DNA of 64,000 nucleotides from an uncultured Pseudobdellovibrionaceae bacterium (GTDB lineage Bacteria; Bdellovibrionota; FAC87; UBA2466). Shown one piece after another: positions 6,069 through 35,164 of this stretch. Each line of letters opens with the position of its first letter. Within the stretch, counting starts at the first letter, position 1. Location: contig CAZBJE010000005.1 in the NCBI GenBank assembly GCA_964492125.1, forward strand, positions 8,964 to 72,963, in the 5' to 3' direction. Below the pieces are notes generated by a model. The model was not told the DNA's origin. It worked only from the letters and a program-made list of their open reading frames with translations, and did not search any database. A program made the position numbers and the translations under genes.

Positions 6069-6677
6069 TTGAAACAGATTATTCGGTTAGCCACCAACCC
6101 AGCCGCTTTCATGAACCAGCTGCAATGGTCCCGAAACCATGCCTGGATCCTGCTCACTTTTCTGGGATTAGCGATTGTGGAATCACAGATCGGTACCACC
6201 AAGGCTTTGAACGCGCAGCTAGCTTGGCTACTTTCGAACGAAGCGCACATCGCGCGGGACCAAGCGTTGTTTCTGGTGATGGTCGGCCGCATTGCCGCCC
6301 TGTTTTTGGGCGGCCAAGTCCTCACGCAAATTTTCTGGCTGATTGGCGCGCGCTTGGGCCGCGCCTCGAGCAAACGGGTGCTCACTCGTCGCCTATCGAT
6401 CGTTTATACGTTCTTGCTGGGTAGCTACATTTTAGCAGTCACCCTGAGCGTCGATCAGCAAATCTGGGCCGCTTTGGTTTTCGGCTGGGGGCTGATACTG
6501 GCCTACGTTACATTCCGAGAGCATTTCAGCTTAGACCGGTATGCCGCAGTCGTGTTGGGTTTGGTAGCGGTGGGATCTATCGTCGTGAGTTTTCAGCAGG
6601 CGGATCGCTACGTGCAAAAAAGCGCTAGCCAAGCCATCGCTAAGCAAGTCGCCAAATCCCGCGTTCACCGCCGCTAG
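6069..6677 (+). CDS. Hypothetical polytopic membrane protein
   Basis: 202 aa with 4-5 hydrophobic helices. It is divergent from the lipoprotein gene. The overlapping ORF 5846-6424 in another frame is considered spurious. Confidence 0.45.
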   Translation: MKQIIRLATNPAAFMNQLQWSRNHAWILLTFLGLAIVESQIGTTKALNAQLAWLLSNEAHIARDQALFLVMVGRIAALFLGGQVLTQIFWLIGARLGRASSKRVLTRRLSIVYTFLLGSYILAVTLSVDQQIWAALVFGWGLILAYVTFREHFSLDRYAAVVLGLVAVGSIVVSFQQADRYVQKSASQAIAKQVAKSRVHRR

Positions 6678-7846: not shown

Positions 7847-7865
7847 ACGTACGACCTTTCAAAAA

Positions 7866-16560: not shown

Positions 16561-19500
16561 GTGGGGCTGGTGCGGCGTTTATTCTCAAATACATGGGCGA
16601 TCTGCGTTTTCCTCGCCATCGCCTTTTCCTCCACCGTTTGGGCACAACCCTGCCCCCCGGAGCTGCTGAAATTCGCCCAAATCCAGGAAATGCTCGCGCA
16701 GGGCACTCCCGGTGCCCAGGAACTTCTCCAATTCCCAGCACCCTTTCTCCGAGACAGTTTCGCACAACTTGAAGAGCACCAAAGTATTGGACTCACCGTT
16801 CTGTACCCAGAGGCGTTTGGCTACTTTCAGCACCATCTCCTCAAGACTCTCTACGCCGAAACGCCCGATAGAGTTTCTCCGCGAGTAAAATTGGAGGACA
16901 CCTGGTCGGAGTGGCTTGTTCTAGAATCCCTTCAGAGCCCCACACAAATACCGCTGCGCGATCATCTCGGGCTCGCACCCATCGATCTTTCGAGTCGGCC
17001 GGTTGTACTGTCTGAAGCTCACCGCCAGCTGCGCTCCCAGCATTGGATCTCCGCCGATGCCGTACCGCTTTTTTGGTCTCCCGTTTTCAGCCATTTGGAA
17101 TGGCTCAAGCAGTTTGGGTGTTCGCGCGAAAACGGTGTGCAAAGCTGGCTTTCCAACACCAGTTGCTTGGGCACATTGCGCAGTCTCTACGGGGCATTGA
17201 CCGAAGCGTGGTTATTAGCGCCTCGGGAAAACTGGATCCCTGGCGGAGCGATTCGGGTGGGAGGAAAACTCCATGCCGACGGATGGAGAATTTCGTTTGA
17301 GGGCGGACATCTTGTTCTCGAGAGCCTCACCGAAATCAAACCAAGCCTTGTGCGTTTTCACGCACGGGGGATGTACCAGATCCACGGCTTCCTGGAGCGA
17401 CTCTTAGAACCGGGCGCGCGGATTGAGGTTTATGGGCAGAAAATAGATACTGGCAAACTCCGCATCCGAACAAAACACGGTCTTGTGTCGCTTCCTATGC
17501 TTCGATCGCTCTTGGGAGCCCAACACTTCGAGAAATCGTCGATAGTCCTACCCGGCGCAGAAGCGCCCCCCATCGCCTACGACGGACGTTGGGGTGGTTT
17601 TGTGAAGCAATTTGAGGCGACTTTTGAACCCGAGTTTTTTGAATCGGTTCTGCCAAAGGACGAAGTGCCCTATGTCGCCTCCCACTTGGTGCATTTGCAA
17701 AATCGACCCGTTGGCATACAAACCCCAGGCCTATTCACTTTGGCGCAAAACCGGCAACGCTTTATTCAATTCATGGCATCTGTCATGGGGGATCCAGAAT
17801 CCGAGCCGCTCTTAAGTGCCGCGATCTTTCTAAAAGAAACGCATGAACACCGGGACCTTTTAGTGCATGTGGCCGTGCCAGGGACGTCCGGGATCGCGGA
17901 ACCAACCCCCACGGCACTGGAAAATCTCGACCCTCGAATCAAGAACGCAGACTACGCAGCTATTTTGGAGGAAGCAGTCCACCGCGACGTTTCCTATCAC
18001 CCCTTGGAATACCCAGCCAACACGCAAAAACGAGAGTTTCTCCTGCGCGTGCTGATGCCGTACGCGGGTTGGCGCACCCTGCTTTCAGCACCCTCCGCTT
18101 TCCGCCAGGTGGCTATCGACGACACTTCGCTCACTATTGAGCCGTACGGCAGCATGATGCCACTACGGGTAGAGTGGGTGCCTCAAACTATTTTGTCGGC
18201 ACCCGTTTGGGAAACCACCGGTGTACGTACCTTGAAAATCCCGCACGGGTACCGCTGGCCGAGCGATTCTTCGCTTTTTGAATTTTTCGACTACGGCTTG
18301 GTCAACCACGACCTGCATCGTTTCACGGCACCGGAGTGGGTAGAACGCCAACGCGCCGGACTCGGTGAGCCACGAGTAATCCTCAAGCCTGGCCAAAAAT
18401 ATATCTTGGATCGCTTTCGCACTACCCTCGATGCAAACCCGAACACTCGCCTGGAAGTCTACATACAAGGCCCCATGGCATACGGGAAAACCCTGATCCT
18501 CCACGAGGCATTGAAGGACCTTATCCGCCGCTCGCCATCTGGCACGACCAAACGAAACCTCTTTTTCGTTGTGACAGGCCAAAAACGGCTCGTTGAGCAA
18601 ATTTCGACAGAGCTCAAACGCAAGCGAGCACACGACCTTTCCGAGCCGGTGGATTTTACGCATCTCTCGTGGGAGACAGGAAATTCTCGCCAGCAATTCG
18701 GTTCTCTTTCGGAAATAGCGGATAAAGCGGCGCTCGAGGCGGCATCTGGCCGCACCGTGGTGGTTACTGTGAACTGGAGCTACCTAAACCAACGCACGAA
18801 AGAATCGTCCCCGGAGGCGATCGAGCGACTGAAAAACCAGCTAGCGGGCTTTTTTATCGACGAAGCGAATCAAGCTGGCGCTGACAGCAACCTAAACACC
18901 GTTTCCAACCTCACGGAAAATGTTCCAGAGATGGTCCTCTGGGGCCAAGAAGCTGTTGGGATAAACCGCAAAGTCATCCAAGACATCTTTCATGGAAATA
19001 TCTGGTGGGTAGTACCAACCGAAAACGAAAACCAAGATCCTGTCCAAGCTAGCCTCAGCCAAATGACCCGCAGCGTGCGCGACGGCCTGATTGCGCCAAT
19101 GGCGGAAAATGCCAGCGATAAGGTACTGATGCACTTTACGCCAGAGCAACTAGTCCGCAATCGTGCGCTACCTAAAGGCGCACAACCGCGGATGATCTAC
19201 CGAACAATTGCCGATGCTACACACCGCGAAGCGCTTTACGGGTACCTTGCGAATGACCTCGACCAAATGCTCCTGCGACACCGCGGCCTAATTCGAGTAG
19301 AAAACCAGCAACAGGCTTCGGACCTCGCAAACTACCTGCAGGCTTACCTCCATCGCGCGCGTGAATTGGAACCTTCTCGCCCGCAGCGCACCATCCGGGC
19401 CTATTTCGACGGCTCGCCCGATCACGATGGAGTGTATAGGGGACTTTCCAAAACCGAGGGCGCCGATCGCGTCGATTGGGCGGTGGTAGTTAAGCAATTT

Positions 19501-22500
19501 GATGGCGGCATCGATATTCCCCACCTCAGCGGACTGGTACTGATCACCGAAAAGATTGATCCGGAAACTTTCTTGGAATTTTTGGGCCGCTCATTGCGGC
19601 TTTACCCGGGCAAGGCACCGGTCGAGATTGTACAAATATCCGCGGCTCCCTCTTTGCCGGAAAGCCTTCTGGCGGGGCTAAAACGCAAACAGGAGGCTTT
19701 AGATGCCGCGGTTAGTTCCACCACCGGAGTACCGTCAGGAGATATTCCACCCGTCGTACTCGATACTCTTTCGCCCGTGGCTGTCCCCCAGGCGCCTGCT
19801 CCCGAGGCGGTCGCTCAAGTGGAGGCCAAGCGCCGGATAGCCTTTTCTCCGATCGGAATTCTTCCCGAGCTGACGGGTTCTCGCGATCAGATCCTTATTT
19901 CTCAATTGGCTCGGCTGGCGATTCACTTCGATAAGCCGAAACTTCAATGGGTACAAAACCATCCCGAAGCAGAGCTGCAATACCAAACGGAAATGAGAAT
20001 ACTGCTAGAATCGATCACGGATCTGGCGCCCAACTCCGTGCTTTCAGATTTTATTCGAAATTCAGATAGCAAACAGGATCCACGCCGTTTCGAAGTGTGG
20101 ACCCTATTCAACTATCTTCTGGCACCGGTGATGGACGAGTTCGTGCTGGTGCACCGCCCAGCCCAACCACCGGCAGAGCCGAGAGTATTTGAAGCGGAAT
20201 ACGAATTGGGTATTTACGAAGGCGGTGAAGAGAGGATTCTTCGGTACGTGCGCGCTGGGCCGAGCACCCAATTCACTTCCTGGCCTCCCACTGGCTATCC
20301 ATTAGAAAACCGACTGAACACTTTGCAAGCCAGGTGGCCCGAGGAGTGGCAGGATTTTCCCCAAGATACACCGCTTCAATCACTTGCCTTTGGGATAACA
20401 GAGCTAACCAAGCGATCCCACCAGTTCGCTATCGAGCTAGCACGGTGGCTTTCGATCAAGGCAAACCAGAATCCAGATCCACAGACCGTGCTGTTGTGGA
20501 CTGCCCGTTTTGGCAAACTGATTGACTGTTACCGTGCGCTTTTGCCCAACGAACCGAACCTCGAAGCGGCGGCGCGTCGAGTAGCATTCGGAAGCTTTGA
20601 TTTACAAAATTTACTTGTTTTTGCGGGTCGACTGCAAACAGATCTCCGTTTGCGTTACTCTCCGTTAGAGAGACTCCCTCTGCAGAAAACATGGACAGCT
20701 AGACTCTTTCCCCTTCCAGACTTTGAAGTAAATCTCCACGCGGACGTTCAAAAACTGGAAAGCGCCAGCGCCGTTCGGCCAAAAACCAAGCTGAACGCAA
20801 CCGAGATACATTCGATGGTGGACCCCTGGTTGGATCATCTGGGCGAAAAACTACCCGGCGAACGCAAACTCGTCGTGGAGGCCTATGAGTTTTTGAAGAA
20901 GGTTCAAACGACGTTGCGAAGAGCCAGGGATACTTCAAGCCCCATAGATTGGCAGGAACATTTTGAGTACGCCGAGGTGACACCAGAGAACCTCGTTGAA
21001 GAGCCTACTAAGAAGCTCGTCGTTATTCGACCTGGAGAGCTGGGCTCCCTGTCGGGCAACGAATGGGAATCGAAGCTAGCGTGGGTAGTCAAAGCAAAAG
21101 CATTGTTAGATCCGCGCAAATACGCGCTGGTTGAGAGCGAAATGAAAACCCGGGTTCCCGAAGGCCTGCAACGCCGTGTCTTTCTAAATTCGTGGCGCGT
21201 CCTGGAAATCATTCGGCTAGACAACGCTGTGATGGCAGTGGTCCGACGCTTTGGCGTTCAATCTGAGTTGGCAAAGGCGCTAATTTCAGAACTCGATTAC
21301 CTGAAAAACTTTGTGGCAACCGACGATCCCTCGAACCTTCTATCTTTTTTGAAGAACTCGCCGGTTCACTCGCGTCCGCTATCCACCCAAGTTCCATTTA
21401 CATTTTTTCTAAAAATGATCCCTTCGACAGAACTCATTACACCATCCGAGATCGACCTGAATAACCCAGACTCGATAATGGATCGCCTCCTCGGATACCC
21501 GGCTGAGGCTTCGGCGATCGTCGCTAGCCCGCTGGGCGAAAAAACGAGGCGCTTCTCAAATGTAGCCTCCCTGCTCTTCTTAGGTCCGCAAGACAGACGC
21601 ACTTTCGAACTAGACGCTCTGGTCAGAGTAGTAGGCCCCCGCCTTTCTGCTGCTCCCGAGCTCGAATACGAAGTGCGCTATTCACCAGAAATCTTGCTAG
21701 ACATGGATGCACAAATCGGCGGAACGCCCAAATTAGCAAAGTGGCCACTCACTGAGCAGATAGCAAAAGAACGAGTGGCGACACTGAAAGTTTCCGGGCC
21801 TTCTGCGCTCGATCAATTCGCCAACGCATGCGCCGCGCTCCACTTCTACCTTACAGCTGCCGGAGTTGAGGCAGAGCGGGCGTCTTGGCTTCTCAAAGGT
21901 GGTCAAACGGAAAGAATAAAGGGACTCATCCAGCAAGCCGACTTGTACCTTCGAGAGGGTTTGAGATTGAGTGCCGCACTCTTTGGCGGTGACGAACGTT
22001 TAGCGTTGCTCAAGCGAGTGTATGAGGAGAGTTATTCGGAGCAATCGAACCACCAGGCGGGACCCCTGCGGCAATCGGAGTTGATTCAAGGCATAATGAT
22101 TTCCGCCCACCACTGGATTAACGAACACTATTTTTCCATTGGCACGAGTAACCCTGAGACGGATCGATTCTTGATGCGAGCTAGTCGTTTTGCTTCCGTC
22201 CAAAAGGAAATAACGCTGAAGCAATTAAACGCCGACATTGCGAAGCTCGACCGTGCTGCTTCCTCTCTATCCGGCGATTCGAAACCTGACGCCGACTGGT
22301 TGGAGAATCCTCGCCAGCAGATAGGCGCAATCGTGAATCCGTGGTCAGACAACGAAGGGCTGCCACTACCAAGAGACCCAGGTGAAATGGCCCGATCGGC
22401 CTCTCAATTCATGCGAGAGATTCTCAACGACCTACGACAGTATGCAAACACCCCGGACCCGTTGCCTCTTGTGACAAGAATAGCATTCGCGCCCCCAAGC

Positions 22501-25476
22501 GTAGCCACCCTGCAAGGCGAGGATCCATTTGCTGTTGTGGACCTTCCACTATCGCTTTCCACGCAAGAAATTGCCGCACTACAGGGCGAGCGGCGTCGGC
22601 TTGCCGTTGCCGCCTTATTCAAGCGTATCGTGGCTCTGGTCGTCGCTGAACCCGCCATGGCTATTAATCGGGCGGAAGGGATAGGCGTCCGGATGACGGC
22701 TTTTATGTCTGCCTGGTCAATACTCCACCGAGCCCGACTGGCCGATGCCACTCGAGGGCTTGAAGCTCTCCTGGGTTCTGAGTGTGATCTGGTGCGCTTA
22801 TTGCGAGAACATATTCGGACATACACACCAAATCTGTCCAACACTGCCTCTCTCACTGCAGAATTCATGCGACTCCGCGATACCCTTTGGCGGTATTACC
22901 CGACCCTTATGGTGGCGGACATCCAAGGTCTAAAGCGTTCCGTTGCTCCGCTTACACTCCCCGCCACGGAAAAACTTGGAAATTGGAAGCGGATGCTTGG
23001 CTACTCTCCGCATACTCTTTCCGAATTCCCAGAAATTACACCCGAGGAAGAATTCCTCATGGGAGCGGGATTGGCGCGCCCAATCGATAATTTATTGACG
23101 CTGTCATTCGAGCCGGATCTAGAAGAACGCCTACGAAAAAGCTCTGTAGCAACCAGGACTGCGCTCAGAGACAAGTGGCTTGCCCAAAATCCGGAGGCCA
23201 AAGCCGACCGATTCGCGGCTGTCGCCAAAACGATGCTGCAGTTGGAATTTATGGTGGCTAAAATTCGACAGAAATTAGATGTCAAAAATGCCATTCGCCA
23301 AGTTCAGGAGACCGATAGGTTGCGGGGCATTTTATTGGAGCATTTAGGTGAACTGCGCAGCCTCTTAGTCACTATTTTCCCGGAAGACCCGCTCCTTGCT
23401 GAACTTGTGCAAGACGAGCCGGAGAATACTTTCGAAGTTGAAGCACTTCTGAAGTACTTGGATGAAACCTACTTTCTTTCTCTTCTACAGGCTGGCAGTC
23501 CACCGCTCCACGGGGAATACAAGCCGGGTAACTTCCCCATTTTGACCAAACCCCAGGCGCTAGGCGCGCTCAAACTCATACGCTGGAAAAGTGAAAACAC
23601 TCCGCACATCCCTCTGCAACAACCCACCGGAGTCGAGGCGGCGAAAGCAGTATTGGATGTAATTCGTCAATTGGAAGAGACGCTACCCACCCAGTGGACC
23701 GCTGAAACACGCGTGGGGTTTGTCTCGCAGCTCCAACTACTCCATCACCGCTTCACAGAGCCTGTCTGGGGCAAGAAGAATGCTTTCGTGCCGGGTATTT
23801 CTGCTTTGATTGAGGCCCTTTCTGATGGAACCGACGCTTCTGGCGACGAAACCACCCGGCGAATTAATCGAGCGTTAAACGACGACACATTCGCATTGGG
23901 AAGGCTTGCACTCCTAATTCACCCGACATACTTGACCGACAGTGGAGAAATAGAAGAGCAAGAACTCGCCTTGCTTTTTTCGGAAGGCGCAAAACAAAAG
24001 GTGGCCGCATTAGCGCCAAAGCCCAACCAGAACGCCGAAATAGCGGATGCTGGCTTGGAACACTTAGTGGTTTCTCAATTACTTCTGATGCAGAATATCC
24101 CTAGCGATACCGGCCCACATATAAGAACGGATGCACTGAAGGAATGCCTGAGACTTGCCCTATCTGAGTTACAGCTGGCCTATTCCTACGATCCCTTCTT
24201 CCAGATCGCGGCATTCAAACAAAATATCGCGGGCGACTCGGCATTTACCACTGTTGGATTATTGGCACTCACCATAGACCGTCTTTTCCAAATTCACGCC
24301 ATCAATCTATGGGGTCATCTGTATCGCCACCCTCTGTTCGAAGCCATGAACGAAATTTTCGTTCGCAGGCCCGACGCAAACCCAGAGCAGATCATAGAAC
24401 TTCTCCGCACCACTGAATTCAAGCAGCAGATCCCCGACACGGAGGAGGCGATGGCGGTGGTGCGACGTATGCATAGCCTCGACCGGCCGGCACCCACAGA
24501 CGCTAAGCAGGCAATTGAACTCGCGCGAGGTATTCTCCGTGACCCCTATTGGACTCGGAGCGCTGCACCCACCTCTGCCCAAGCTACGGCGATTCAATCG
24601 CTGGTGAAGTGGATGACCGTTCTAAGTGAGGCGAACTCAAATATCGATAGAATGGATAAACAGAAGCAAGCAGCCTCTCAGATAGCAATCGCTTCTATGA
24701 AAGCCAGTGTGCAGAAGGAACTTGCCGACGCTTTCGGCGAGAATTGCTCGATTCTTGCGCGGCTAGACAAATACGAAATCACGCGGGGCGCCCACGTGAT
24801 GAAGCTTCTAGAAATGGAGCTCGCGGTTCGCTTTCCGTGGAAAACAACCCCACCAGACGCCGCGATCAGCCAGCTCTTCAGTCCTAGCCCTGTTGCGATG
24901 AAAGCCTTTCCCCTTTCGCGAGAGCAAGCGCAGAGTCGGCTCCAGAAGGCTGGGTTAGGCGAAGATTTGGGCTCGGCATTCAAGACGATCATCGAAACCC
25001 TCGCGCTCACGCAGAATGCCGCCAATCGAAACCTGGTTAGAGGGGTTCCCGCCAACGGCACACTAGAACCCATAGTATTCCAAATGGTGGGGGCACTGAG
25101 CGCCTTGGTGCCAGAGGACGCCTACTTCTCCGCACTTTTGGAAAGCAAGGTATGGAAAACGCAAATGCTCCACTATGGCGCTATCCACATCCTTTGCGAG
25201 GCGTTGTTAGAGAGGATCCAATTCTATCCGTTCTACGGATCCCTAAAGACCGGCCCCATTCATCGCCCTCTCCATGGGATGGACGATATGCTCCAACGTG
25301 TTACTACCTACAAGACGGTCATCGAAAGAGGCCCGCAAAGCGACGAAGCCGCCTACGCTCAGGCCATTGGTGAACTGCCTTATTTGGAGCGTTTTTTAGA
25401 TCCTAAAAGCGAATTTTCTGAAGAAGAGAAAATGGTCGAAGCAACGCTCCACTTGGACAAGCTTATCCAGCCCTAA
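16561..25476 (+). CDS. Giant (2971 aa) signal-peptide-bearing protein with an internal SF2 DEAD/DEAH-like helicase/ATPase core; function unknown
   Basis: Single ORF of 8916 nt with a GTG start; an alternative GTG at 16570 has better GGAG spacing. The Sec-like N-terminus is MGLVRRLFSNTWAICVFLAIAFSSTVWA/QP. Motif I is GPMAYGKT (aa 637-644, nt 18469-18492). Motif II is FFIDEANQ (aa 764-771). A motif V-like element FDGGIDIPHLSGLVLIT lies at aa 979-996. Motif VI is FLGRSLRL (aa 1007-1014). The flanking ~600 aa and ~1950 aa are non-repetitive with no recognisable domain. Confidence 0.8.
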   Translation: MGLVRRLFSNTWAICVFLAIAFSSTVWAQPCPPELLKFAQIQEMLAQGTPGAQELLQFPAPFLRDSFAQLEEHQSIGLTVLYPEAFGYFQHHLLKTLYAETPDRVSPRVKLEDTWSEWLVLESLQSPTQIPLRDHLGLAPIDLSSRPVVLSEAHRQLRSQHWISADAVPLFWSPVFSHLEWLKQFGCSRENGVQSWLSNTSCLGTLRSLYGALTEAWLLAPRENWIPGGAIRVGGKLHADGWRISFEGGHLVLESLTEIKPSLVRFHARGMYQIHGFLERLLEPGARIEVYGQKIDTGKLRIRTKHGLVSLPMLRSLLGAQHFEKSSIVLPGAEAPPIAYDGRWGGFVKQFEATFEPEFFESVLPKDEVPYVASHLVHLQNRPVGIQTPGLFTLAQNRQRFIQFMASVMGDPESEPLLSAAIFLKETHEHRDLLVHVAVPGTSGIAEPTPTALENLDPRIKNADYAAILEEAVHRDVSYHPLEYPANTQKREFLLRVLMPYAGWRTLLSAPSAFRQVAIDDTSLTIEPYGSMMPLRVEWVPQTILSAPVWETTGVRTLKIPHGYRWPSDSSLFEFFDYGLVNHDLHRFTAPEWVERQRAGLGEPRVILKPGQKYILDRFRTTLDANPNTRLEVYIQGPMAYGKTLILHEALKDLIRRSPSGTTKRNLFFVVTGQKRLVEQISTELKRKRAHDLSEPVDFTHLSWETGNSRQQFGSLSEIADKAALEAASGRTVVVTVNWSYLNQRTKESSPEAIERLKNQLAGFFIDEANQAGADSNLNTVSNLTENVPEMVLWGQEAVGINRKVIQDIFHGNIWWVVPTENENQDPVQASLSQMTRSVRDGLIAPMAENASDKVLMHFTPEQLVRNRALPKGAQPRMIYRTIADATHREALYGYLANDLDQMLLRHRGLIRVENQQQASDLANYLQAYLHRARELEPSRPQRTIRAYFDGSPDHDGVYRGLSKTEGADRVDWAVVVKQFDGGIDIPHLSGLVLITEKIDPETFLEFLGRSLRLYPGKAPVEIVQISAAPSLPESLLAGLKRKQEALDAAVSSTTGVPSGDIPPVVLDTLSPVAVPQAPAPEAVAQVEAKRRIAFSPIGILPELTGSRDQILISQLARLAIHFDKPKLQWVQNHPEAELQYQTEMRILLESITDLAPNSVLSDFIRNSDSKQDPRRFEVWTLFNYLLAPVMDEFVLVHRPAQPPAEPRVFEAEYELGIYEGGEERILRYVRAGPSTQFTSWPPTGYPLENRLNTLQARWPEEWQDFPQDTPLQSLAFGITELTKRSHQFAIELARWLSIKANQNPDPQTVLLWTARFGKLIDCYRALLPNEPNLEAAARRVAFGSFDLQNLLVFAGRLQTDLRLRYSPLERLPLQKTWTARLFPLPDFEVNLHADVQKLESASAVRPKTKLNATEIHSMVDPWLDHLGEKLPGERKLVVEAYEFLKKVQTTLRRARDTSSPIDWQEHFEYAEVTPENLVEEPTKKLVVIRPGELGSLSGNEWESKLAWVVKAKALLDPRKYALVESEMKTRVPEGLQRRVFLNSWRVLEIIRLDNAVMAVVRRFGVQSELAKALISELDYLKNFVATDDPSNLLSFLKNSPVHSRPLSTQVPFTFFLKMIPSTELITPSEIDLNNPDSIMDRLLGYPAEASAIVASPLGEKTRRFSNVASLLFLGPQDRRTFELDALVRVVGPRLSAAPELEYEVRYSPEILLDMDAQIGGTPKLAKWPLTEQIAKERVATLKVSGPSALDQFANACAALHFYLTAAGVEAERASWLLKGGQTERIKGLIQQADLYLREGLRLSAALFGGDERLALLKRVYEESYSEQSNHQAGPLRQSELIQGIMISAHHWINEHYFSIGTSNPETDRFLMRASRFASVQKEITLKQLNADIAKLDRAASSLSGDSKPDADWLENPRQQIGAIVNPWSDNEGLPLPRDPGEMARSASQFMREILNDLRQYANTPDPLPLVTRIAFAPPSVATLQGEDPFAVVDLPLSLSTQEIAALQGERRRLAVAALFKRIVALVVAEPAMAINRAEGIGVRMTAFMSAWSILHRARLADATRGLEALLGSECDLVRLLREHIRTYTPNLSNTASLTAEFMRLRDTLWRYYPTLMVADIQGLKRSVAPLTLPATEKLGNWKRMLGYSPHTLSEFPEITPEEEFLMGAGLARPIDNLLTLSFEPDLEERLRKSSVATRTALRDKWLAQNPEAKADRFAAVAKTMLQLEFMVAKIRQKLDVKNAIRQVQETDRLRGILLEHLGELRSLLVTIFPEDPLLAELVQDEPENTFEVEALLKYLDETYFLSLLQAGSPPLHGEYKPGNFPILTKPQALGALKLIRWKSENTPHIPLQQPTGVEAAKAVLDVIRQLEETLPTQWTAETRVGFVSQLQLLHHRFTEPVWGKKNAFVPGISALIEALSDGTDASGDETTRRINRALNDDTFALGRLALLIHPTYLTDSGEIEEQELALLFSEGAKQKVAALAPKPNQNAEIADAGLEHLVVSQLLLMQNIPSDTGPHIRTDALKECLRLALSELQLAYSYDPFFQIAAFKQNIAGDSAFTTVGLLALTIDRLFQIHAINLWGHLYRHPLFEAMNEIFVRRPDANPEQIIELLRTTEFKQQIPDTEEAMAVVRRMHSLDRPAPTDAKQAIELARGILRDPYWTRSAAPTSAQATAIQSLVKWMTVLSEANSNIDRMDKQKQAASQIAIASMKASVQKELADAFGENCSILARLDKYEITRGAHVMKLLEMELAVRFPWKTTPPDAAISQLFSPSPVAMKAFPLSREQAQSRLQKAGLGEDLGSAFKTIIETLALTQNAANRNLVRGVPANGTLEPIVFQMVGALSALVPEDAYFSALLESKVWKTQMLHYGAIHILCEALLERIQFYPFYGSLKTGPIHRPLHGMDDMLQRVTTYKTVIERGPQSDEAAYAQAIGELPYLERFLDPKSEFSEEEKMVEATLHLDKLIQP

Positions 25477-26525: not shown

Positions 26526-28181
26526 CTAAATTTCCGACCGGATCCCCCCTTGGAACAGCCACTCACCATTGAAAATGCCCAGCGTCCAAAGCGGCGCAAA
26601 ACGGGGTGAGCGCTCACTGAGAAACTGCAGCTCCAGACCGGCGCCCCAGCGGGATGCGCTAGGCAAGCCCGCTAAGTCGACAGCCACCGCTCCCAAAGAG
26701 GCGTATGCGCCCACGCGCAACCACGGCAGCAACTGGTAGCGGTAGGTCGTCCACAATGCCGCAGCCTGAGACTCCAGAAGCCGGTATTCACGAATGCCGG
26801 GCATGTCTGTGTCTCCCAAATCCGACAAGGCATTAAATGGCACCGTACCGTCGGTCGCGAGCAAGGCCGCGTTCACGTGCAGCGTATTGCGCAGATTAAT
26901 GCGAATGTGCGCCGCTCCCTGCAAGCGAGTGCGCGTAATCAAGACGTCGCCGGGTTCGGTGAAGAGCCACTCCTGGCGCAAGCGCCCAAAAAATCCTTGG
27001 CGAGGAGCTACTGCCCGATCCCGAGAATCCCAAGAGGCTTCCACCACGATGCCTTGCATGGATTTCCCGACCAAACCACCAGGCAACGGATCCGACGCAA
27101 AGTTTCGCCGCGTAACCCCTGCAGCCAGTTCTAAATTTTCCCAAACTGGCGCCGACAGAACCGCGTCGATATCCCAACTCGTCGTACGGAAATCACTTCG
27201 GGCCCCATAAACAGAAGCCATCCCCAAACCAAAATAATCGCGCACTCGATGAGACGCAGAAAACCGACCGACCAAACGCAACGGGGCTATCCATTCGCTC
27301 TCGGCTAGTTCGAGCTCTCCCCCGACGTTGCCGCGCGTAGAGGCCATCACCGCCGCCGTGCCACTTCGGCGTCGATCCCCCAACCGATCGTCCCAAACTC
27401 GCAAGCCCGCCCCAATGCCGCGCGCAGGTGAAGCCCCGAACAGAGGCGCCCAACCATACCCCAAAGCGTCGAAGCTGCGCGGTTCGCTGCGTTTCAAATG
27501 CAAAACCGCACGGGGGTCCGACGGACTGAGTTTTGCCGCCCGCTCCATCGCTTCCCGGGCCAGTGGCAAATTCCCCTGCCGTTCCAGCGTCAACCCCAAC
27601 CAGTAATCCGTTCCCGGGGCGGTGGGGGCACTGCGTTCGAGCACGCGCCAAGACATCAGCGAATTGCGGAAGTCTTGCCCAAATACCGGAGAGAGAGCAG
27701 AGCGTAGGCGCCCCGTAACGTGCAATCTTTCCGCGTCGTCGGCTTCACCCAATAAAATATTCTGCGTATCCGACGCTAAACGCTTGGCGCTGAAGTAGTG
27801 CATCCAGGGCAACCCCTGGGCGGTGCGCTCGGCCCCGGCCAATGCGCAGACAGAGGCAGCCCGCGCAGTCAGTGGGCCAGTGAGACTTTCGTAGTGACTC
27901 ATGCGCCAACCCACGCAGAAATCTTCCACTTTGGCCCACGCGCGCTGCGCAGCGTGGGGGTGGCCCGCTTCTCTCTCCAGCGCACCCAATGCCAACCAAT
28001 GCAGTGCCTGTTCCAATTCGGACTGAGGAGAGGAATCGCCGTACGTCGCCAACCGCCGAGTCAGCGTTTCGGCGTCGGCGTTCTGCAATTGTGGCGACAG
28101 AAAACTGGTGTCGGCGCAAACCACGCCACTGAAAACCAAAACCCATGACCACCTGCGCCAAGCAAAAAAAAGATTTCCCAT
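26526..28181 (-). CDS. Outer-membrane beta-barrel protein, Omp85/ShlB-like family (tentative), with helical TPR-like N-terminal region
   Basis: The start is chosen at MGNLFFAWRRWSWVLVFSGVVCA, which looks like a signal peptide. The C-terminal ~300 aa have amphipathic beta-strand periodicity and a TRG motif reminiscent of the VRGY/F loop 6 motif. The terminal residue is not aromatic, which lowers confidence. Confidence 0.4.
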   Translation of the reverse strand: MGNLFFAWRRWSWVLVFSGVVCADTSFLSPQLQNADAETLTRRLATYGDSSPQSELEQALHWLALGALEREAGHPHAAQRAWAKVEDFCVGWRMSHYESLTGPLTARAASVCALAGAERTAQGLPWMHYFSAKRLASDTQNILLGEADDAERLHVTGRLRSALSPVFGQDFRNSLMSWRVLERSAPTAPGTDYWLGLTLERQGNLPLAREAMERAAKLSPSDPRAVLHLKRSEPRSFDALGYGWAPLFGASPARGIGAGLRVWDDRLGDRRRSGTAAVMASTRGNVGGELELAESEWIAPLRLVGRFSASHRVRDYFGLGMASVYGARSDFRTTSWDIDAVLSAPVWENLELAAGVTRRNFASDPLPGGLVGKSMQGIVVEASWDSRDRAVAPRQGFFGRLRQEWLFTEPGDVLITRTRLQGAAHIRINLRNTLHVNAALLATDGTVPFNALSDLGDTDMPGIREYRLLESQAAALWTTYRYQLLPWLRVGAYASLGAVAVDLAGLPSASRWGAGLELQFLSERSPRFAPLWTLGIFNGEWLFQGGIRSEI

Positions 28182-28258
28182 TCTTTCTCCCGAGCCGGAG
28201 CTTACCAGCGGCATGCCGTCATTGCGAGTAACGGCGGTCGGTGCCAAAATGGATCAAC

Positions 28259-29731: not shown

Positions 29732-30460
29732 TCAGGGATTGCGCGCGAACTGCTGGAACATGAGCGGCATGGGGTCTACCGGCTGACGCCGCGCGCGGAC
29801 TTCAAAGTGCAGGTGATTGCCCGTGGAGCGGCCGGTCCGACCCACCGTTCCCACGTTTTGACCGCGAGTGACAAACTGCCCCTTCCGCACGCCGATCTTA
29901 GTAAGATGGGCATAAACGGTCGAAAACTGTCCAGCGTGTTGCACGATAACCATGTTGCCGTAGCCCGCGATTCGGTTCGTGGCGTACACCACGTGGCCGC
30001 TGCGCGCGACCCGCACAGGAGTCCCTTTGCGCGCCGCGATATCTATGCCTTCATGCATGTGGCGTCCACGCCCGCGCATGGTGCGGCGGCCGAATTTGGA
30101 ACTGATCGGCCCTTTGACAGGCCAAAGAAACGCAACCCGCATATTGGGGTCAACGCCGGGAGTTTCGCTTTCGTCGGAAGCCACCGCGCGTTCGCCGGGA
30201 GCTTCGTCGACTTCTTCATAAAATTCTTTGTTCCAATCCGGGTTCTCTTCGAACGGGATATAGATTTTCTGACCCGGCTTTAGCCCAGCAACCAAAATAT
30301 CTTGGTTGGCTTTTTCCAACGAGGCCGCCGGAACGTCATAAGCCGTTGCTAACTTGGCAATGGAATCCCCCGCCTGCACTCGGTGGTAACGGGATTGGAT
30401 TCCCGCGCACGAGGCTAGAGCAAGACAGAGCGTCCACAAAATTGAGGTCTGCAGCTTCAT
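29732..30460 (-). CDS. LysM + M23 peptidase lipoprotein (NlpD/EnvC-like murein hydrolase activator)
   Basis: The start is chosen at MKLQTSILWTLCLALASCAG (lipobox). The LysM region is YHRVQAGDSIAKLATAYDV. The M23 motifs are HEGIDIAA and NHLHFEV. Confidence 0.75.
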   Translation of the reverse strand: MKLQTSILWTLCLALASCAGIQSRYHRVQAGDSIAKLATAYDVPAASLEKANQDILVAGLKPGQKIYIPFEENPDWNKEFYEEVDEAPGERAVASDESETPGVDPNMRVAFLWPVKGPISSKFGRRTMRGRGRHMHEGIDIAARKGTPVRVARSGHVVYATNRIAGYGNMVIVQHAGQFSTVYAHLTKIGVRKGQFVTRGQNVGTVGRTGRSTGNHLHFEVRARRQPVDPMPLMFQQFARNP

Positions 30461-30710
30461 GATTCTTTTTGTTTGAGCGCGCAACATAGTCGAGTCCGGA
30501 CAGAGAGTCAAACCAACGAGCCAAGCTAGGTATTCATCTAGCTTATCGGAACTATTTAGCTTTTGCCTGAAATAAGTTTTTGCAAGATCTTGTAACGCGC
30601 CGTCTCGTCCTCAGTGTTTTCGGTAAGTTAGGCGGTGCCAAATTACGGCACCGCCCTAGGATAGAGACGTAAAGGAGAGGGAAAATGTGAACAGAAAGAC
30701 GAGAACTACC

Positions 30711-32780
30711 TCAATCAGCCCCTGCCCCCTCTTCGCTAGCTGATTCCGTCGAGGCCACCGCATTCTGCAAAATACGACTGGCGCAATTGCTGCGGTGCTT
30801 AGCCACCCGTTGCTCGGCAATTACTCTCCACGTATGGAACGCCGCGCCTTCATAGGTAGTGGGTGCGGGCCTCTTTTTATACAGGGCCTCTCTCCGAGCG
30901 CTGTCATGATTCACCTCCGCGGCGCGGTAGGTGAGCGGCTTGCCCAACTTTTCAAACTCCTCGATGGTGATAGCGGTATTCAACCCGCCACCGACCGCGA
31001 AGATCTCGTCCGAGCCAGTGAGGAAAACCTCCAGCGCGGGGGTATGGGAACCATCGGCGTTCTTGCCTCCCCAGTTCTTGTCGTCGATGAGGACCAAGTG
31101 ATCTAGGTTACTCGAAAAAGTGCCGGAATAGCGGAGAGCCTGGGTCGATGCAATGCCCATGGTCTCAAAGCCCATCCCTTTGGCGAGTTCGTACACCCGA
31201 GAAATGCCTTCCTTGGTCCCGCCGCAGTTCACAATATCCTTGGCCGGATCCATCGACCGCAATTTTTCAAGGAGGATCTCGTCTACCACCTTGGCATACT
31301 GGTAACCATTAGCGGAATTTCCCATGAACGTGACAATGCGTTTACTCCCCTTGATCTCGCGCATCTTGGCGATGGCCTGCTGAGCACCGAGCGGTTCCGT
31401 GACAGTGCGCGGACCGGTTTGAGTTCCTTTGGCTTCGTCCGCTTGCTGAGCCAATTTTAAACCTTCATACGTGAACTTTTCCGGACTGCCTTCCTTGGAG
31501 TTGATCCATCCCAAGAGAGTGTCGTCGTCGGGGTACTCGGTGAATTCCAAAATCTGGAAAAGCTTCTTCGCCGCTTCTAATATTGCTTCAGGAGTGCGGT
31601 AATCCGGTGGCACCACGTAATTCTTCGGTGCAGTCGGATCGTCAAAGAAACCGTGAATGAGCTTGTTGTAAACATTGGCCAGTAGCGCCAGTGCTCGGTC
31701 ATGAATGAAATGGATGTTTACGGGGGTTTCGCGGCCCTGGTTGGCGCGCGATCCGCTGGCCAAGTTACCAGTCTCGGTGCGCATCGATTCATGATCAAAG
31801 TGAGCGCCAGGGGCTCTCTCTAACATCACTTCAAAGGGTTGGGTGATGCCAGGACGACGCAACAAATCATCGATAATCCATCGGCGATCCGCGGGCAGCG
31901 CGGATTCGTGCAAAATTTCAAACACCAACACCCGCAGCATGGCCCGCTTGGCGTAGGCGTCGCGATCGGCCTTCAGCGATATCTTCTCCAAGTGCGGCAT
32001 CAACGTGCCGGTGATGAATTTATCCATCCTCCGGTACATCGCCATCTCTTGGTCAAAAGTAGTGATGCCGTTTTCGCGCAGAGTGAGAAAAAGATATTCC
32101 ACCATGCGGCGAACGTGATTGAGGTCGTGGTACCAAAAGTCTAAGGGAGTTTGGTAATGGCGATCGACGCGCAAACCTTGAGTGGCCACGCCGATCAAAC
32201 CAAACGGCACCGAACGTACTTGAATCAATTCGTTGAACCCCAGGCTTTCAAAGGTGGGAATAATCACCACCCGCGGATCCGACATCATGCGGTGGCGGTG
32301 GTACATGTAACGATCGAAGTGGTACAGCGGCACGACTTTATCCGGGTTGCGCAGCCGATCCACTTTATCGAAAAGGCCCACCGCGCGTTCGATGGCGTCC
32401 AAGGTCGGGCGGTACGGGTAGATGCCCTCAAAAGGGGTGGCATAAGGATAACGAGCTTGGTCTTCGTACGAGAACTCGATGTTCACGTGAAAGAGCAACG
32501 TGCGGACTTCTTCCAGCTCCATATTGAGCGTTGGATTCTCTGCGATGGCCTTCAAAAACCAATCGGCTTTCAGGTCCGCCAAAATCCGATCGACCACTGG
32601 TTTGAATTCGGGAAAGGAGGCATTGGCCCCCTGGGTCCGCAGCCGCTTGGTCATTTCCTCGTAAGTTCCCACCGGATCCCGCACGATCCGCTCCTCGAGG
32701 GTCTCGCCCGCCTGTAAAGGGGCGGAACAAATCAGCAAAAGGCAGGTGATGCGCGCATAAGCGGATACGAGTTTTCTCAC
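30711..32780 (-). CDS. Secreted two-domain protein: novel ~450-aa N-terminal domain + C-terminal LOG/SLOG (TIGR00730-like) Rossmann domain
   Basis: Signal peptide MRKLVSAYARITCLLLICSAPLQA/GE. Residues ~480-620 (nt ~30920-31345) are colinear with LOG proteins: VTFMGNSANG aligns with VFCGSxxG, NCGGTKEGISR with GGGxxGLM, HLVLIDDKNW with the substrate loop, and AVGGGLNTAITIEEF with PGGxGTxEE. The N-terminal 450 aa (e.g. DFWYHDLNHVRRMVEY) are unassigned. Confidence 0.6.
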   Translation of the reverse strand: MRKLVSAYARITCLLLICSAPLQAGETLEERIVRDPVGTYEEMTKRLRTQGANASFPEFKPVVDRILADLKADWFLKAIAENPTLNMELEEVRTLLFHVNIEFSYEDQARYPYATPFEGIYPYRPTLDAIERAVGLFDKVDRLRNPDKVVPLYHFDRYMYHRHRMMSDPRVVIIPTFESLGFNELIQVRSVPFGLIGVATQGLRVDRHYQTPLDFWYHDLNHVRRMVEYLFLTLRENGITTFDQEMAMYRRMDKFITGTLMPHLEKISLKADRDAYAKRAMLRVLVFEILHESALPADRRWIIDDLLRRPGITQPFEVMLERAPGAHFDHESMRTETGNLASGSRANQGRETPVNIHFIHDRALALLANVYNKLIHGFFDDPTAPKNYVVPPDYRTPEAILEAAKKLFQILEFTEYPDDDTLLGWINSKEGSPEKFTYEGLKLAQQADEAKGTQTGPRTVTEPLGAQQAIAKMREIKGSKRIVTFMGNSANGYQYAKVVDEILLEKLRSMDPAKDIVNCGGTKEGISRVYELAKGMGFETMGIASTQALRYSGTFSSNLDHLVLIDDKNWGGKNADGSHTPALEVFLTGSDEIFAVGGGLNTAITIEEFEKLGKPLTYRAAEVNHDSARREALYKKRPAPTTYEGAAFHTWRVIAEQRVAKHRSNCASRILQNAVASTESASEEGAGAD

Positions 32781-32831
32781 GTGGGGACCTCCGGATTGCC
32801 CGCTGCATTAACACATTCGGCGCGGGACCGG

Positions 32832-33596
32832 TCAGAGCTTTTTGAGTGCCGCATAAAATGCATTATGGGTGCAGTCGATGGTGATGGGGGTAATGGCGAC
32901 TTTGCCTTGCTCCAAAGCATGGCAATCAGACAGGGGATCTTGCTCAAACCCTGAGTAGGCCCCGCCCAACCAATAGTAGTCCCGCCCTCTCGGGTCGGTG
33001 CGTTTAGTGATGTCGTTGGCGTAATAGCGCATGCCCTGCCGCGTGAATTCCATGGCCCCCATGTCTGTGACATTGGCGTGGTTGGGGATATTCACATTCA
33101 GCAAGCAGTGCGGCGGGAACTGGATATCTTTAGTCGCCAAAAAGACTTCCCGGGCTTTCAAAGCCGCCGACTCAAAATGCAATTTACCCGCGGGGTTCTT
33201 GGAATACTCGTGGGGATCCTGCACCAGTGAAAAAGCGTAGCTGGGGATATTCATTAAGGCCCCTTCCCGAGCGGCCGCGACCGTGCCGGAATAATGGACG
33301 TCGGTCCCCAAATTAGCGCCTGCGTTGATGCCCGACAAAATATAGTCGGGGTTTCGCTTTAGGATCTCACGCATCCCTAGGTAAATGCAGTCGGCGGGCG
33401 ACCCCGAAGCGGCATAGACGCCTCCCGAAACCTTTCGCAGGCGCAGCGGTTTGTGCAGCGTGAGGCTATGGCCGGCAGTGCTGCGCTCTCGGTTCGGCGC
33501 AACCACCAACACTTCGGCAACCTCGCGCAAAGCCGCAGCCAGCGCGTGAATGCCGGGGGATTCGATTCCATCGTCGTTGCTGATTAAGATCGTCAT
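32832..33596 (-). CDS. surE: 5'/3'-nucleotidase SurE
   Basis: 254 aa with N-terminus MTILISNDDGIESPGIHALAAAL and the conserved SurE DDG metal site. It overlaps the prfB stop by 4 nt. Confidence 0.9.
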   Translation of the reverse strand: MTILISNDDGIESPGIHALAAALREVAEVLVVAPNRERSTAGHSLTLHKPLRLRKVSGGVYAASGSPADCIYLGMREILKRNPDYILSGINAGANLGTDVHYSGTVAAAREGALMNIPSYAFSLVQDPHEYSKNPAGKLHFESAALKAREVFLATKDIQFPPHCLLNVNIPNHANVTDMGAMEFTRQGMRYYANDITKRTDPRGRDYYWLGGAYSGFEQDPLSDCHALEQGKVAITPITIDCTHNAFYAALKKL

Positions 33597-34712
33597 TTAC
33601 TCTCCCGCTTTGACATCAAGTAGCTTTCGACAAACGGCTGCAAGGCCCCATCGAGCACCGGCAAAATATCCTGGGTTTCAAAGTCGGTGCGGTGATCTTT
33701 GATCATGCGGTAGGGGTGCATGACATAGGAACGGATCTGGCTGCCCCAAGCGATGTCGGATTTGGCATCTTCCACTTCGGCAGCAGCAGCGCGTTTGATT
33801 TCCAGTTCTCGCTCATACAAGCGGGCTTTCAAAATCTTCATGGCCACGGCTTTGTTCTGGTGCTGCGACCGCTCGTTTTGGCAGGTCACCACGATATTCG
33901 TTGGTAAGTGGGTGATACGGACCGCGGAGTCGGTTTTATTTACCTTCTGCCCGCCCGCTCCACCGGCGCGGTAGGTGTCGATGCGCAAGTCCTTGTCCTC
34001 GATCTTGATTTCGATTTCTTCTTCGATATCGGGATACACAAACACCGACGCAAAAGACGTGTGGCGACGCGCATTGGAATCAAATGGCGAAATACGGACC
34101 AGACGATGCACCCCGATTTCCGCTTTCAAAAATCCATAAGCGTATTGGCCACGAGCAAAGAAAGTGGCGGATTTAATACCGGCCTCCTCCCCCTCTAGAG
34201 TGTCCACGATTTGAGTGGGAAAACCGCGCTGCTCGCAGTAGCGGATATACATGCGGAATAGAATCTGGGCCCAGTCTTGGGCTTCGGTGCCACCAGCGCC
34301 GGCGTTGATGTTTACGATGGCGTCAGCGCGATCGTTGGGGCCGCCCAGCATTTCTTGCAATTCGATTCCCCGCACAGCGGCTGCCACGCCTTGGAGCTCA
34401 GTTTGCAGTTCACGCAGGTTTTCTTCCGAGGGTTCTTCCGCGACCAGCTCCACCATGGCGGTGCAGTCTCCCGAGCGGCGCTCGGCATCGAAAAACACGT
34501 TCAGTGCGTTTTCGACAGTGCTTTTCTCTTTGAGTGTGACTTTCGCTTTTGCGGCGTCGGCCCAGAAGGATTCTTGAGCGGATTGCCCTTCTATTTCTTC
34601 GAGGCGACGTTGTTTAGCGGCGACGTCAAAGACGCCCCCGTATCCCAGCCAGGCGCGCGGCCAAGTCTTCGGATTGTTTTTTGAGAACCTCTAGTCCGGG
34701 TACGTGTTCCAT
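33593..34712 (-). CDS. prfB: Peptide chain release factor 2, with programmed +1 ribosomal frameshift
   Basis: The ORF track gives only the 301-aa downstream frame. The upstream frame from ATG 34712 encodes MEHVPGLEVLKKQSEDLAARLAGIRGRL and ends at CTT TGA C (TGA 34626-34628) with an internal GGGGG SD 3 nt upstream. The +1 shift continues DVAAKQRRLEEIEG... into the GGQ-containing body (RAGGAGGQKVNKTDSAVRITHLPT), for a total of 372 aa. The architecture is the same as E. coli prfB. Confidence 0.9.
34623..34631 (-). other. prfB +1 programmed frameshift site (CTT TGA C)
   Basis: The plus-strand sequence gtcaaag at 34625-34631 is the reverse complement of CTTTGAC. It is preceded on the coding strand by ACGGGGGCGT, an SD-like GGGGG with a 3-nt spacer. 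Confidence 0.85.
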
Positions 34713-34765: not shown

Positions 34766-35164
34766 CTAGTAGTAGCTGCTGCCGGTATTGATGGAGAAAC
34801 CAAACCCGCAGAAGCGGATCGCCATCGAAAAATGCTTCCGACGAGGACGAGGACGTGGAGCGCAGTACGGCATGTAGCCGCCAAACGCATACGGGTTCAT
34901 CATCTGTCCACCGCAGTAAGGCCGAGGGTAAATCGGGGGCGGGAACATCGTCGAGCCCTGAAAACCGTGAGAGAAGCCACCGCCGTAACCGCCGGTCGAG
35001 TAAATCGGGGCGGGGTAGAAAGGAACCGGGGCTCGGTAGCCAACGTTCACTTTCACGCCAACGCCAATCGACGGCGCCATTCCAGGAAACTCCGCTTTCG
35101 CGGTCTCCGAAACAGTCATGCCGACCGCTAAGAACAAACCAATAATCAACAACCAGTTTTTCAT
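34766..35164 (-). CDS. Small secreted Gly/Tyr/Pro-rich protein
   Basis: 132 aa with signal peptide MKNWLLIIGLFLAVGMTVSETAKA/E. The mature part is rich in GYGGGF and PxYP repeats. Confidence 0.4.
   Translation of the reverse strand: MKNWLLIIGLFLAVGMTVSETAKAEFPGMAPSIGVGVKVNVGYRAPVPFYPAPIYSTGGYGGGFSHGFQGSTMFPPPIYPRPYCGGQMMNPYAFGGYMPYCAPRPRPRRKHFSMAIRFCGFGFSINTGSSYY

Follow-up and report, generated by a model that had tools for sequence, protein, structure and literature searches.

The MHR1/2 regions of TRPM channels bind ADP-ribose (ADPR) or ATP, and the SLOG domain of TRPM2 binds ADPR. The SLOG domain of ThsA binds 3′cADPR, which leads to activation of its SIR2 domain (PMC7272460; bioRxiv 10.64898/2025.12.03.692087). 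In the phosphoribohydrolase CgLOG, the catalytic pair consists of Arg99 and Glu122, the latter closing the motif P114-G-G-x-G-T119-x-x-E122 (PMC4979012), and in Bordetella pertussis the single-domain protein BpLOG (BP1253), which carries PGGxGTxxE and both the catalytic Arg and the catalytic Glu, is a genuine LOG whose phosphoribohydrolase activity has been demonstrated (PMC6864091). Here we analyse a gene located at positions 30711 to 32780 of a 64,000-nucleotide stretch of DNA (hereafter the window) from an uncultured Pseudobdellovibrionaceae bacterium (contig CAZBJE010000005.1). Its product joins an undescribed N-terminal domain to a C-terminal SLOG domain lacking the LOG catalytic residues, behind a predicted export leader. 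We tentatively favour, at somewhat less than an even chance, the view that it belongs to a new family of enzymes, is exported and gated by its SLOG domain, and acts on substrates derived from nucleotides or NAD.

Gene structure, leader and domain layout

The main features of the gene are the following:

30711..32780 (−): complete coding sequence of 689 aa, GTG start, TGA stop
32788..32792 (−): Shine–Dalgarno sequence GGAGG, 7 nt before the GTG (sequence inspection)
32709..32780 (−): Sec-type leader, residues 1–24 (n-region MRKLVSAYAR, h-region ITCLLLICSA, c-region PLQA, then GE)
31431..32699 (−): undescribed N-terminal domain, residues ~28–450 (AlphaFold2 model of the domain alone: predicted local distance difference test (pLDDT) 94.3, predicted template modelling score (pTM) 0.91)
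30861..31349 (−): SLOG-fold domain, residues ~478–640, six beta-alpha units (AlphaFold2 secondary structure and Foldseek)
30738..30845 (−): long C-terminal helix, residues 646–681, following the SLOG domain (AlphaFold2)

The product of this open reading frame (ORF) is identical to a database protein (P0001). Since GGAGG lies 7 nt before the GTG, the N-terminus MRKLVSAYARITCLLLICSAPLQA/GE, including the leader, represents the true start. By inspection, the leader consists of a basic n-region, a 10-residue hydrophobic core and an L-Q-A cleavage-type site; a lipobox, sought in the same way, was not seen. The maximal 10-residue Kyte–Doolittle hydropathy of the leader is 2.57. By inspection and this hydropathy heuristic, the protein thus combines a charged n-region, a hydrophobic core, a small-residue cleavage site and a supported start, and it is predicted to be Sec-exported with a cleavable leader. 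The Sec-type signal of the original prediction is therefore borne out by the n-h-c layout, the L-Q-A site and the Shine–Dalgarno-supported GTG. Analogous but non-identical leaders are present in the closest relatives and in the Bdellovibrionota copies. The GC content of the gene (0.548) is close to that of the window (0.555).

The full-length AlphaFold2 model, built from a 75-sequence family alignment, is confident (mean pLDDT 92.1, pTM 0.75). The leader appears as a detached helix of low pLDDT (residues 2–17) and is followed by a mixed alpha/beta N-domain (~28–450), a low-confidence linker (~450–465) and the C-terminal part, composed of a six-unit beta-alpha domain (481–634) and a long helix (646–681). 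The last eight residues are disordered, with pLDDT below 50 at 685–689.

A SLOG fold without the LOG catalytic residues

The full model was compared by Foldseek with 350,542 PDB chains, of which the best 50 matches were considered. These were SLOG proteins throughout (probability 0.94–1.00, template modelling (TM) score to target 0.53–0.61), including TRPM2/4/5/8 MHR1/2, the Chlamydomonas molybdenum cofactor (MoCo) carrier protein, TM1055, YgdH/PpnN, LOG proteins of types I and II and DprA. Profile searches of PDB sequences with full-length, N-domain and C-domain alignments gave no match. According to the model, the C-terminal domain (~478–640) is a genuine SLOG Rossmannoid fold; the fold anticipated by the original prediction was thus recovered by Foldseek. 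Glycine-rich ligand loops follow strands 1, 2 and 5 (G-x-S at 486–489, G-G-T-K-E-G at 520–525 and G-G-G at 597–599), and their glycines are invariant in the C-domain alignment (A4). Three motifs had been likened to those of LOG proteins from the sequence: the first two correspond to strand 1 with the G-x-S loop (483–492) and to strand 2 with the GG-x-x-x-G loop (518–528), but the third, although rightly placed, had been set out of register.

LOG membership is rejected on the basis of hidden Markov model (HMM) scans and of the alignment of the catalytic residues. The protein has no match to PF03641 or TIGR00730 in Pfam or NCBIfam even at E ≤ 1, none of 75 relatives has one at E ≤ 0.1, and no canonical LOG gene was found in the window or at the homolog loci. 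The counterpart of the catalytic motif is degenerate:

30966..30992 (−): degenerate PGGxGTxxE counterpart, residues 597–605, G-G-G-L-N-T-A-I-T (alignment A4 against CgLOG)

In a register set by the invariant G-G and the conserved Thr of the sequence alignment, not by structural superposition, G598-G599-L-N-T602-A-I-T605 aligns with G115-G116-x-G-T119-x-E121-E122 of CgLOG; the position of catalytic Glu122 is occupied by Thr605, and the family consensus reads GGGxNTA(V/I)T. Two glutamates located two residues past the motif (E607-E608) are not conserved, even within the clade of the protein. Alignment and secondary structure place the segment L-I-D-D-K-N-W-G-G (562–572) after strand 4, where D and W-G-G are invariant and no Arg is conserved, and LOG proteins have M-H-x-R-K where this protein has I-D-D-K-N-W-G-G. 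The phosphate-contacting Ser489 and Thr602 are kept, and two family-specific motifs, D-x-x-W-G-G and G-A-T-E-E-G, are invariant in A4. SLOG copies that are not fused to the N-domain (P0105, P0110, P0165 and others) keep G-G-G-E-V-G-R-D-E, with a D-E/E-E acidic pair at the LOG position. Because these unfused copies retain it, the acidic pair appears to have been lost specifically in the branch fused to the N-domain.

These data bear on the possibility that the protein is an exported LOG-type phosphoribohydrolase cleaving AMP, GMP or cytokinin riboside monophosphates in the periplasm, alongside SurE. The SLOG fold, the LOG structures among the Foldseek matches, the correct placement of the glycine-rich motifs and the predicted-exported LOG BP1253 of B. 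pertussis (PMC6864091) would all fit such an enzyme. However, neither the protein nor its relatives match the LOG families, Thr605 stands in place of Glu122 and a different segment in place of the Arg99 region, whereas BP1253 keeps the motif and both residues, and the adjacency to SurE is not conserved (see below), making this activity very improbable. The nucleotide-cleaving role first suggested for the domain is thus not supported: with no LOG HMM match, the Arg and the Glu whose retention was to be checked are both absent from the fused branch, the former giving way to D-x-x-W-G-G and the latter to threonine.

Several relatives show sub-threshold matches to LSDAT_prok or LDcluster4 (E 6e-5 to 7e-3), the protein itself none. 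The C-domain HMM overlaps the Pfam LSDAT_prok regions of P0084 (independent E-value (i-E) 8.5e-15) and P0165 (i-E 4e-5), and sequence comparison suggests that LSDAT_prok-type SLOG domains are the closest to it. Taken as a whole, the residue pattern indicates that the domain is most likely a ligand sensor, which would bind a nucleotide-type ligand without cleaving it.

The SLOG C-domain also occurs in tandem in P0105, P0082 and P0110, with two full copies, each at i-E 1e-50 to 1e-60. In these tandem-SLOG proteins it is combined with DUF6829, or with a Metallophos and a cytidylyltransferase-like domain.

An undescribed N-terminal domain with a conserved polar core

The N-terminal ~450 aa have no match in Pfam, NCBIfam, PADLOC, PHROGs or PDB sequences. 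A profile built from 53 diverse N-domain sequences likewise matched no PDB sequence, and a Foldseek comparison of the N-domain model with the PDB gave no match (best E 0.8, probability ≤0.13, TM ≤0.17). The domain, already described as unrecognisable in the original prediction, is thus absent from all these libraries, and it is probably enzymatic.

We compared 182 diverse N-domains, which share ~25% pairwise identity with the protein analysed here. Despite this divergence, 24 polar residues are conserved in at least 85% of the sequences: R46, E58, Y123, D138, R142, Y153, H154, R157, Y158, R189 and D206 in a first part, followed by H218, D219, N221, H222, R224, R225, E288, H291, E292, E317, K373, D380 and R395. 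The core is organised as Y-H154-x-x-R-Y, D206, H218-D-x-N-H-x-R-R225 and E288-x-x-H-E292, with the following principal elements:

32163..32165 (−): D206, which alone is 100% conserved in the N-domain superfamily sample
32106..32129 (−): core motif H-D-L-N-H-V-R-R, residues 218–225, at the start of helix 212–236
31905..31919 (−): ExxHE motif E-I-L-H-E, residues 288–292, at the end of helix 273–292

The HDxNHxRR motif is invariant in alignments A1, A3 and A5, and in the 182 N-domains its residues reach 99% (H218, D219 and H222), 86% (N221), 94% (R224) and 98% (R225); the corresponding values for ExxHE are 97% (E288 and H291) and 98% (E292). The invariant residues comprise four His, several Asp/Glu, eight Arg/Lys and several Tyr. 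Such a mix of His/Asp/Glu with Arg/Lys/Tyr would be expected at an active site that is assisted by a metal and takes a strongly anionic, phosphorylated substrate, and the N-domain may represent a new fold and a new enzyme family.

A secreted non-enzyme (a binding, scaffold or adhesin-like protein), in which the conserved residues would serve ligand binding or folding, could also be considered. The N-domain matches no catalytic family, and the top structural matches include well-known SLOG domains without catalysis, for instance the MoCo carrier protein and TRPM MHR1/2. However, polar residues conserved at 85–100% at ~25% identity and forming paired His/Asp/Glu motifs look like an active site, and the partners fused to the family are enzymes and toxin modules; we therefore find a purely structural or binding role quite unlikely.

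Four resemblances to known proteins were examined and rejected. The segment V-D-R-H-x-Q-S-P-L resembles the DRGH motif of Serratia nuclease, a beta-beta-alpha-Me (His-Me finger) enzyme, but H208, adjoining D206, is not conserved in the 182 N-domains and the Foldseek lists contain no nuclease. H-D-x-x-H is reminiscent of HD-domain/class I phosphodiesterases; no HD or phosphodiesterase structure was matched by Foldseek and the N-domain is not all-helical, so that the likeness is at most convergence. Weak, repeated matches to tryptophan hydroxylase, an aromatic amino-acid hydroxylase, were regarded as noise (probability ≤0.13, TM ≤0.17). Finally, a Csx28/tm_HEPN similarity covers a non-conserved helix at residues 398–438 and is insignificant (E 0.027–0.07 in three libraries).

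Modularity and distribution of the family

An exhaustive profile search with the N-domain retrieved 863 clusters (50% identity) at E ≤ 1e-3. Among 218 relatives sampled, 112 contain only the N-domain, 96 both modules and 10 only the C-domain, so that the two modules can occur apart, the N-domain being the main one. In an Oligoflexia metagenome-assembled genome (MAG) (locus L023), a SLOG C-domain gene (4066–4821, −; 252 aa, E 2.6e-43) and an N-only gene (5887–7854, +) lie ~1 kb apart, a split version of the fusion. The fusion in 96 of the 218 relatives and these neighbouring split genes support a functional link between the N-domain and the SLOG module.

A scan of 185,579 species genomes with two strict motifs yielded 21 loci. 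They belong to nine Bdellovibrionota (Bdellovibrionaceae, Bacteriovoracaceae, Pseudobdellovibrionaceae and Oligoflexia), eight Saccharibacteria/Patescibacteria, two Chlamydiota, two uncultured Gammaproteobacteria and one unclassified organism; one more member is annotated as a protein of a Coxiellaceae MAG. The N-domain model also matches the uncharacterised protein E3T4D9, encoded by the giant virus CroV (E 1.2e-23, TM 0.77). A subgroup of N-only proteins of ~500 aa is encoded on two contigs (88 kb and 58 kb, GC 22–26%; L031 and L032) next to genes for topoisomerase IB, P9_TM, an RNA polymerase subunit, serpin and PNK3P, which are giant-virus-type contexts. The recognisable carriers are thus predators, epibionts, intracellular bacteria and giant viruses, and the N-domain is found almost only there. 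A possible mitochondrial presequence in some N-only members was dismissed, one such protein coming from the Coxiellaceae MAG, and a eukaryotic origin is unsupported.

The leader is a feature of particular clades and not of the whole family. It is present in 22–25 of 75 close relatives, while at least 38 of them have no room for one; it is absent from all eight Saccharibacteria/Patescibacteria copies and present in the resolved Bdellovibrionota copies, and eight of the ten C-only proteins carry hydrophobic leaders. The export originally proposed is consequently predicted for the clade of the protein but not family-wide: the leaderless relatives go halfway towards the cytoplasmic homologs that had been named as evidence against it.

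As a separate observation, the first helical N-subdomain (HMM positions ~14–120, with the motif F-P-E-F/L-K-P) is duplicated N-terminally in forms of 770–1100 aa (L014, L018, L020, L021, L023 and L024).

Gene neighbourhood and fusion partners

The gene is flanked by surE on one side and an nlpD-like gene on the other, as noted in the original prediction; both neighbours are assigned by Pfam/NCBIfam:

32832..33596: SurE (5′/3′-nucleotidase), Pfam E 6.5e-58, also recognised by NCBIfam
29732..30511 (−): M23/LysM NlpD-like protein, E 2.6e-35

Further upstream lies prfB, and HU/IHF and ApbE genes are located downstream. This region of the window is of housekeeping character (coaX, birA, flagellin, prfB) and is no defence island. 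Relatives at 60–70% identity and all other members are found in unrelated contexts, with neither surE nor nlpD; the surE/M23 adjacency is therefore incidental: it is peculiar to this genome and says nothing about function. The functional link to SurE once read from it is not supported, both genes being absent near every other member examined. More generally, no gene neighbourhood is conserved: across 27 loci, no adjacent gene recurs beyond near-identical genomes.

The gene contexts also speak to two other possibilities. Polymorphic toxins would be recognised by an adjacent small immunity gene and an N-terminal trafficking domain, but no adjacent gene recurs at the 27 loci. The sole relative pairing the N-domain with a toxin module is the distant P0117, which contains Ntox46; another effector-like fusion, in P0079, involves TPR-S/MAP3K_TRAF_bd. 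The second possibility is a Thoeris-like anti-phage effector, in which the SLOG domain would sense a cyclic ADPR isomer made by a TIR protein and the N-domain would kill or arrest the infected cell. The order of effector and C-terminal SLOG parallels that of ThsA (PMC7272460; bioRxiv 10.64898/2025.12.03.692087), and the SLOG domain is sensor-like. However, there is no TIR or other signal-generator gene beside any member examined, and the PADLOC defence HMMs gave only an insignificant tm_HEPN match (E 0.04). The export leaders of the protein and its clade are incompatible with the sensing of a cytoplasmic signal, and the surroundings are those of housekeeping genes. In the contexts examined, the leaderless members, too, have no TIR, cyclase or defence neighbour. 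Such a defence role is most improbable; the LOG and the Thoeris readings each fail the defining features tested.

One leaderless homolog (L029) is followed, 3 nt after its stop, by a gene for a 134-aa PapZ_C protein (PF22740; 6917–7321, +), an arrangement unseen at other loci.

Several relatives contain additional domains. P0120 combines the N-domain with a NUDIX domain, a nicotinamidase-type isochorismatase and two NAPRTase domains. P0110 and P0211 associate Metallophos, a cytidylyltransferase-like domain and SLOG, P0165 carries a Zeta-toxin kinase together with LSDAT_prok and SLOG, and in P0010 (locus L006) a DSP-phosphatase of the PTP-NADK/Tc-R-P type is fused to the entire N-domain and SLOG unit. 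Downstream of the L014, L017 and L018 genes are genes for an APH-like kinase and a DUF2608/HAD phosphatase, and the neighbour of P0003 is a giant protein with DUF2608, Zeta-toxin and DUF6829. These fusions and neighbours point weakly to nucleotide/NAD phospho-metabolism. P0120 itself is a leader-bearing protein of 4960 aa that also contains an Rce1-like domain, and corresponds either to a genuine giant effector or to a gene-calling fusion.

The same fusions with NAD-salvage and nucleotide enzymes could be expected of a bifunctional salvage enzyme, in which the SLOG domain would perform a non-LOG catalysis (e.g., through the invariant Asp567/568 and Trp570) on nucleotides of the host or prey and the N-domain would process the product. 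Many host- or prey-dependent taxa have reduced nucleotide biosynthesis, and the carriers of the family are of this kind. The SLOG domain has its own invariant motifs (D-x-x-W-G-G and G-A-T-E-E-G), and the lack of immunity genes beside leaderless copies is compatible with a benign metabolic enzyme. On the other hand, so rare and patchy a distribution (21 loci in the scan described above) speaks against a part in core metabolism, in most cases the N-domain lacks a SLOG partner (112 of 218), the acidic pair appears to have been lost precisely in the fused form and there are no conserved pathway neighbours. We consider a salvage enzyme of this type unlikely.

A putative exported enzyme controlled by a SLOG sensor

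The reading that we prefer, an exported and SLOG-gated enzyme, can be put as follows. Module 1 (~28–450) would be the catalytic or effector part, acting on a nucleotide- or NAD/ADPR-derived molecule. Module 2 (~478–640), an LSDAT-like SLOG domain, would bind a nucleotide-type ligand without cleaving it and, once bound, might gate, target or oligomerise module 1; this gating is proposed because of the analogy with ThsA and TRPM2. In the lineage studied here, the protein would leave the cytoplasm and presumably work in the periplasm or on the prey.

Several points weigh against this proposal. The NAD/nucleotide theme comes from a few rare multidomain relatives and two neighbourhoods, with no conserved operon, and P0120 could be a gene-calling artefact. 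The metal/phosphate reading of the N-domain is drawn from residue types only, and the searches run gave no biochemical or structural homolog pointing to its chemistry. The SLOG domain might have another, non-LOG catalysis involving its invariant Asp and Trp. Finally, no immunity or signal-generating partner could be recognised beside the leaderless copies, a pattern that fits neither a classical toxin nor a Thoeris-like sensor.

A bolder version of the proposal can be formulated, although we find it rather doubtful: the N-domain would be a new fold with a new His/Asp/Glu metal centre, converting a nucleotide/NAD-derived metabolite of the host or prey. In the fused form, it would be switched on only when the SLOG domain, itself catalytically dead, binds a nucleotide ligand coming from the host, and the protein would thus be a ligand-gated exported effector. 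The N-domain would be shared by cell-dependent replicators across kingdoms: predatory Bdellovibrionota, epibiotic Saccharibacteria, intracellular Chlamydiota and Coxiellaceae, and giant viruses of the Imitervirales type.

If an exported, SLOG-gated enzyme is indeed encoded here, the N-domain would add a family that counts at least 863 clusters (50% identity), lacks both a Pfam entry and a solved structure, and may have a new fold. Its carriers, predatory, epibiotic and intracellular bacteria together with giant viruses, would point to a common way of exploiting cells. The "effector plus SLOG sensor" principle of ThsA and TRPM2 would be extended to an exported protein with no TIR partner, raising the question of which ligand is sensed by SLOG outside the cytoplasm of the producer. 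Residues D206, H218, D219, H222, E288, H291 and E292 are the targets for mutagenesis.

Other features of the window

Downstream of the gene, a hairpin with a perfect GC-rich stem was read from the sequence:

30631..30655 (−): perfect 9-bp GC-rich hairpin, GGCGGTGCC, 7-nt loop, GGCACCGCC, 56 nt past the stop

It is a possible terminator without a T-run; a scan for consensus terminators did not report it because there is no T tail.

The M23/LysM gene (29732–30511, −) has a probable start at an internal Met (~30460), giving MKLQTSILWTLCLALASC with the lipobox L-A-S-C, and its product is therefore probably an NlpD-like lipoprotein. The sole promoter-like site found near this gene (30511–30483) lies just upstream of the internal-Met start. 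On the other side of surE, the prfB ORF (33593–34498) is preceded by a site for the +1 programmed frameshift of RF2 (34625–34637, −), with a Shine–Dalgarno-like GGGGG followed by CTT TGA C; the ORF is therefore listed without its N-terminus. Three large or small ORFs deserve mention. A 2971-aa ORF (16561–25476, +) directly follows the gene for a patatin-like phospholipase (15355–16467) and has no Pfam match at E ≤ 1e-3. A 573-aa ORF (26526–28247, −) encodes TPR repeats, has a weak match to the Omp85 superfamily (E 9e-4) and overlaps by a few bases the start of the ApbE gene on the opposite strand. A 132-aa ORF (34766–35164, −) has the leader MKNWLLIIGLFLAVGMTVSETAKA, a Gly/Pro/Tyr-rich body and no Pfam match.

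Comparison with known systems

The protein resembles LOG/PpnN (YgdH) in its SLOG Rossmannoid fold, its equivalent glycine-rich loops and its phosphate-binding Ser and Thr. Unlike in LOG/PpnN, the SLOG domain sits behind a 420-aa N-domain, has no LOG HMM match and carries Thr605 and D-x-x-W-G-G. BpLOG, too, belongs to the SLOG superfamily and has a predicted location outside the cytoplasm, but the protein described here is not single-domain and has neither PGGxGTxxE nor the catalytic Arg and Glu. Likeness to LOG in the glycine motifs thus does not imply LOG chemistry.

The MoCo carrier protein of Chlamydomonas (MCP; PDB 2iz5–2iz7), also a SLOG protein, is the second-best structural match (TM to target 0.60). 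MCP is non-enzymatic and only binds its phosphorylated ligand; it is a stand-alone cytoplasmic carrier, whereas our protein has no sequence similarity to MCP and nothing ties it to the molybdenum cofactor. Closer parallels are found with LSDAT (LSDAT_prok and TRPM MHR1/2): the best structural matches are TRPM2, 4, 5 and 8, a non-catalytic role in ligand binding is probably common to both, and LSDAT is the sole Pfam clade reached by sequence, through the intermediates P0084 and P0165. The protein nevertheless remains below the LSDAT_prok threshold, has motifs of its own and is soluble and predicted to be exported, in contrast to a channel.

The architecture is reminiscent of ThsA of type I Thoeris (SIR2-SLOG), in which an N-terminal effector precedes a C-terminal SLOG domain that binds, and does not cleave, a nucleotide-derived ligand; by analogy, the same division of labour may apply here. 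Unlike ThsA, the protein has no SIR2 or other Pfam match in residues 1–470 and its N-domain matches no known family, it has no adjacent TIR (ThsB) gene in the window or in the homolog contexts examined, and it is predicted to be exported; ThsA is absent among its best 50 Foldseek matches. The combination of an effector with a SLOG domain is therefore already known, and what is new is the effector domain, the predicted export, the absence of a signal-generator partner and the SLOG clade itself. The gene offers a good lead to new biochemistry; it does not encode a periplasmic LOG nucleotidase.

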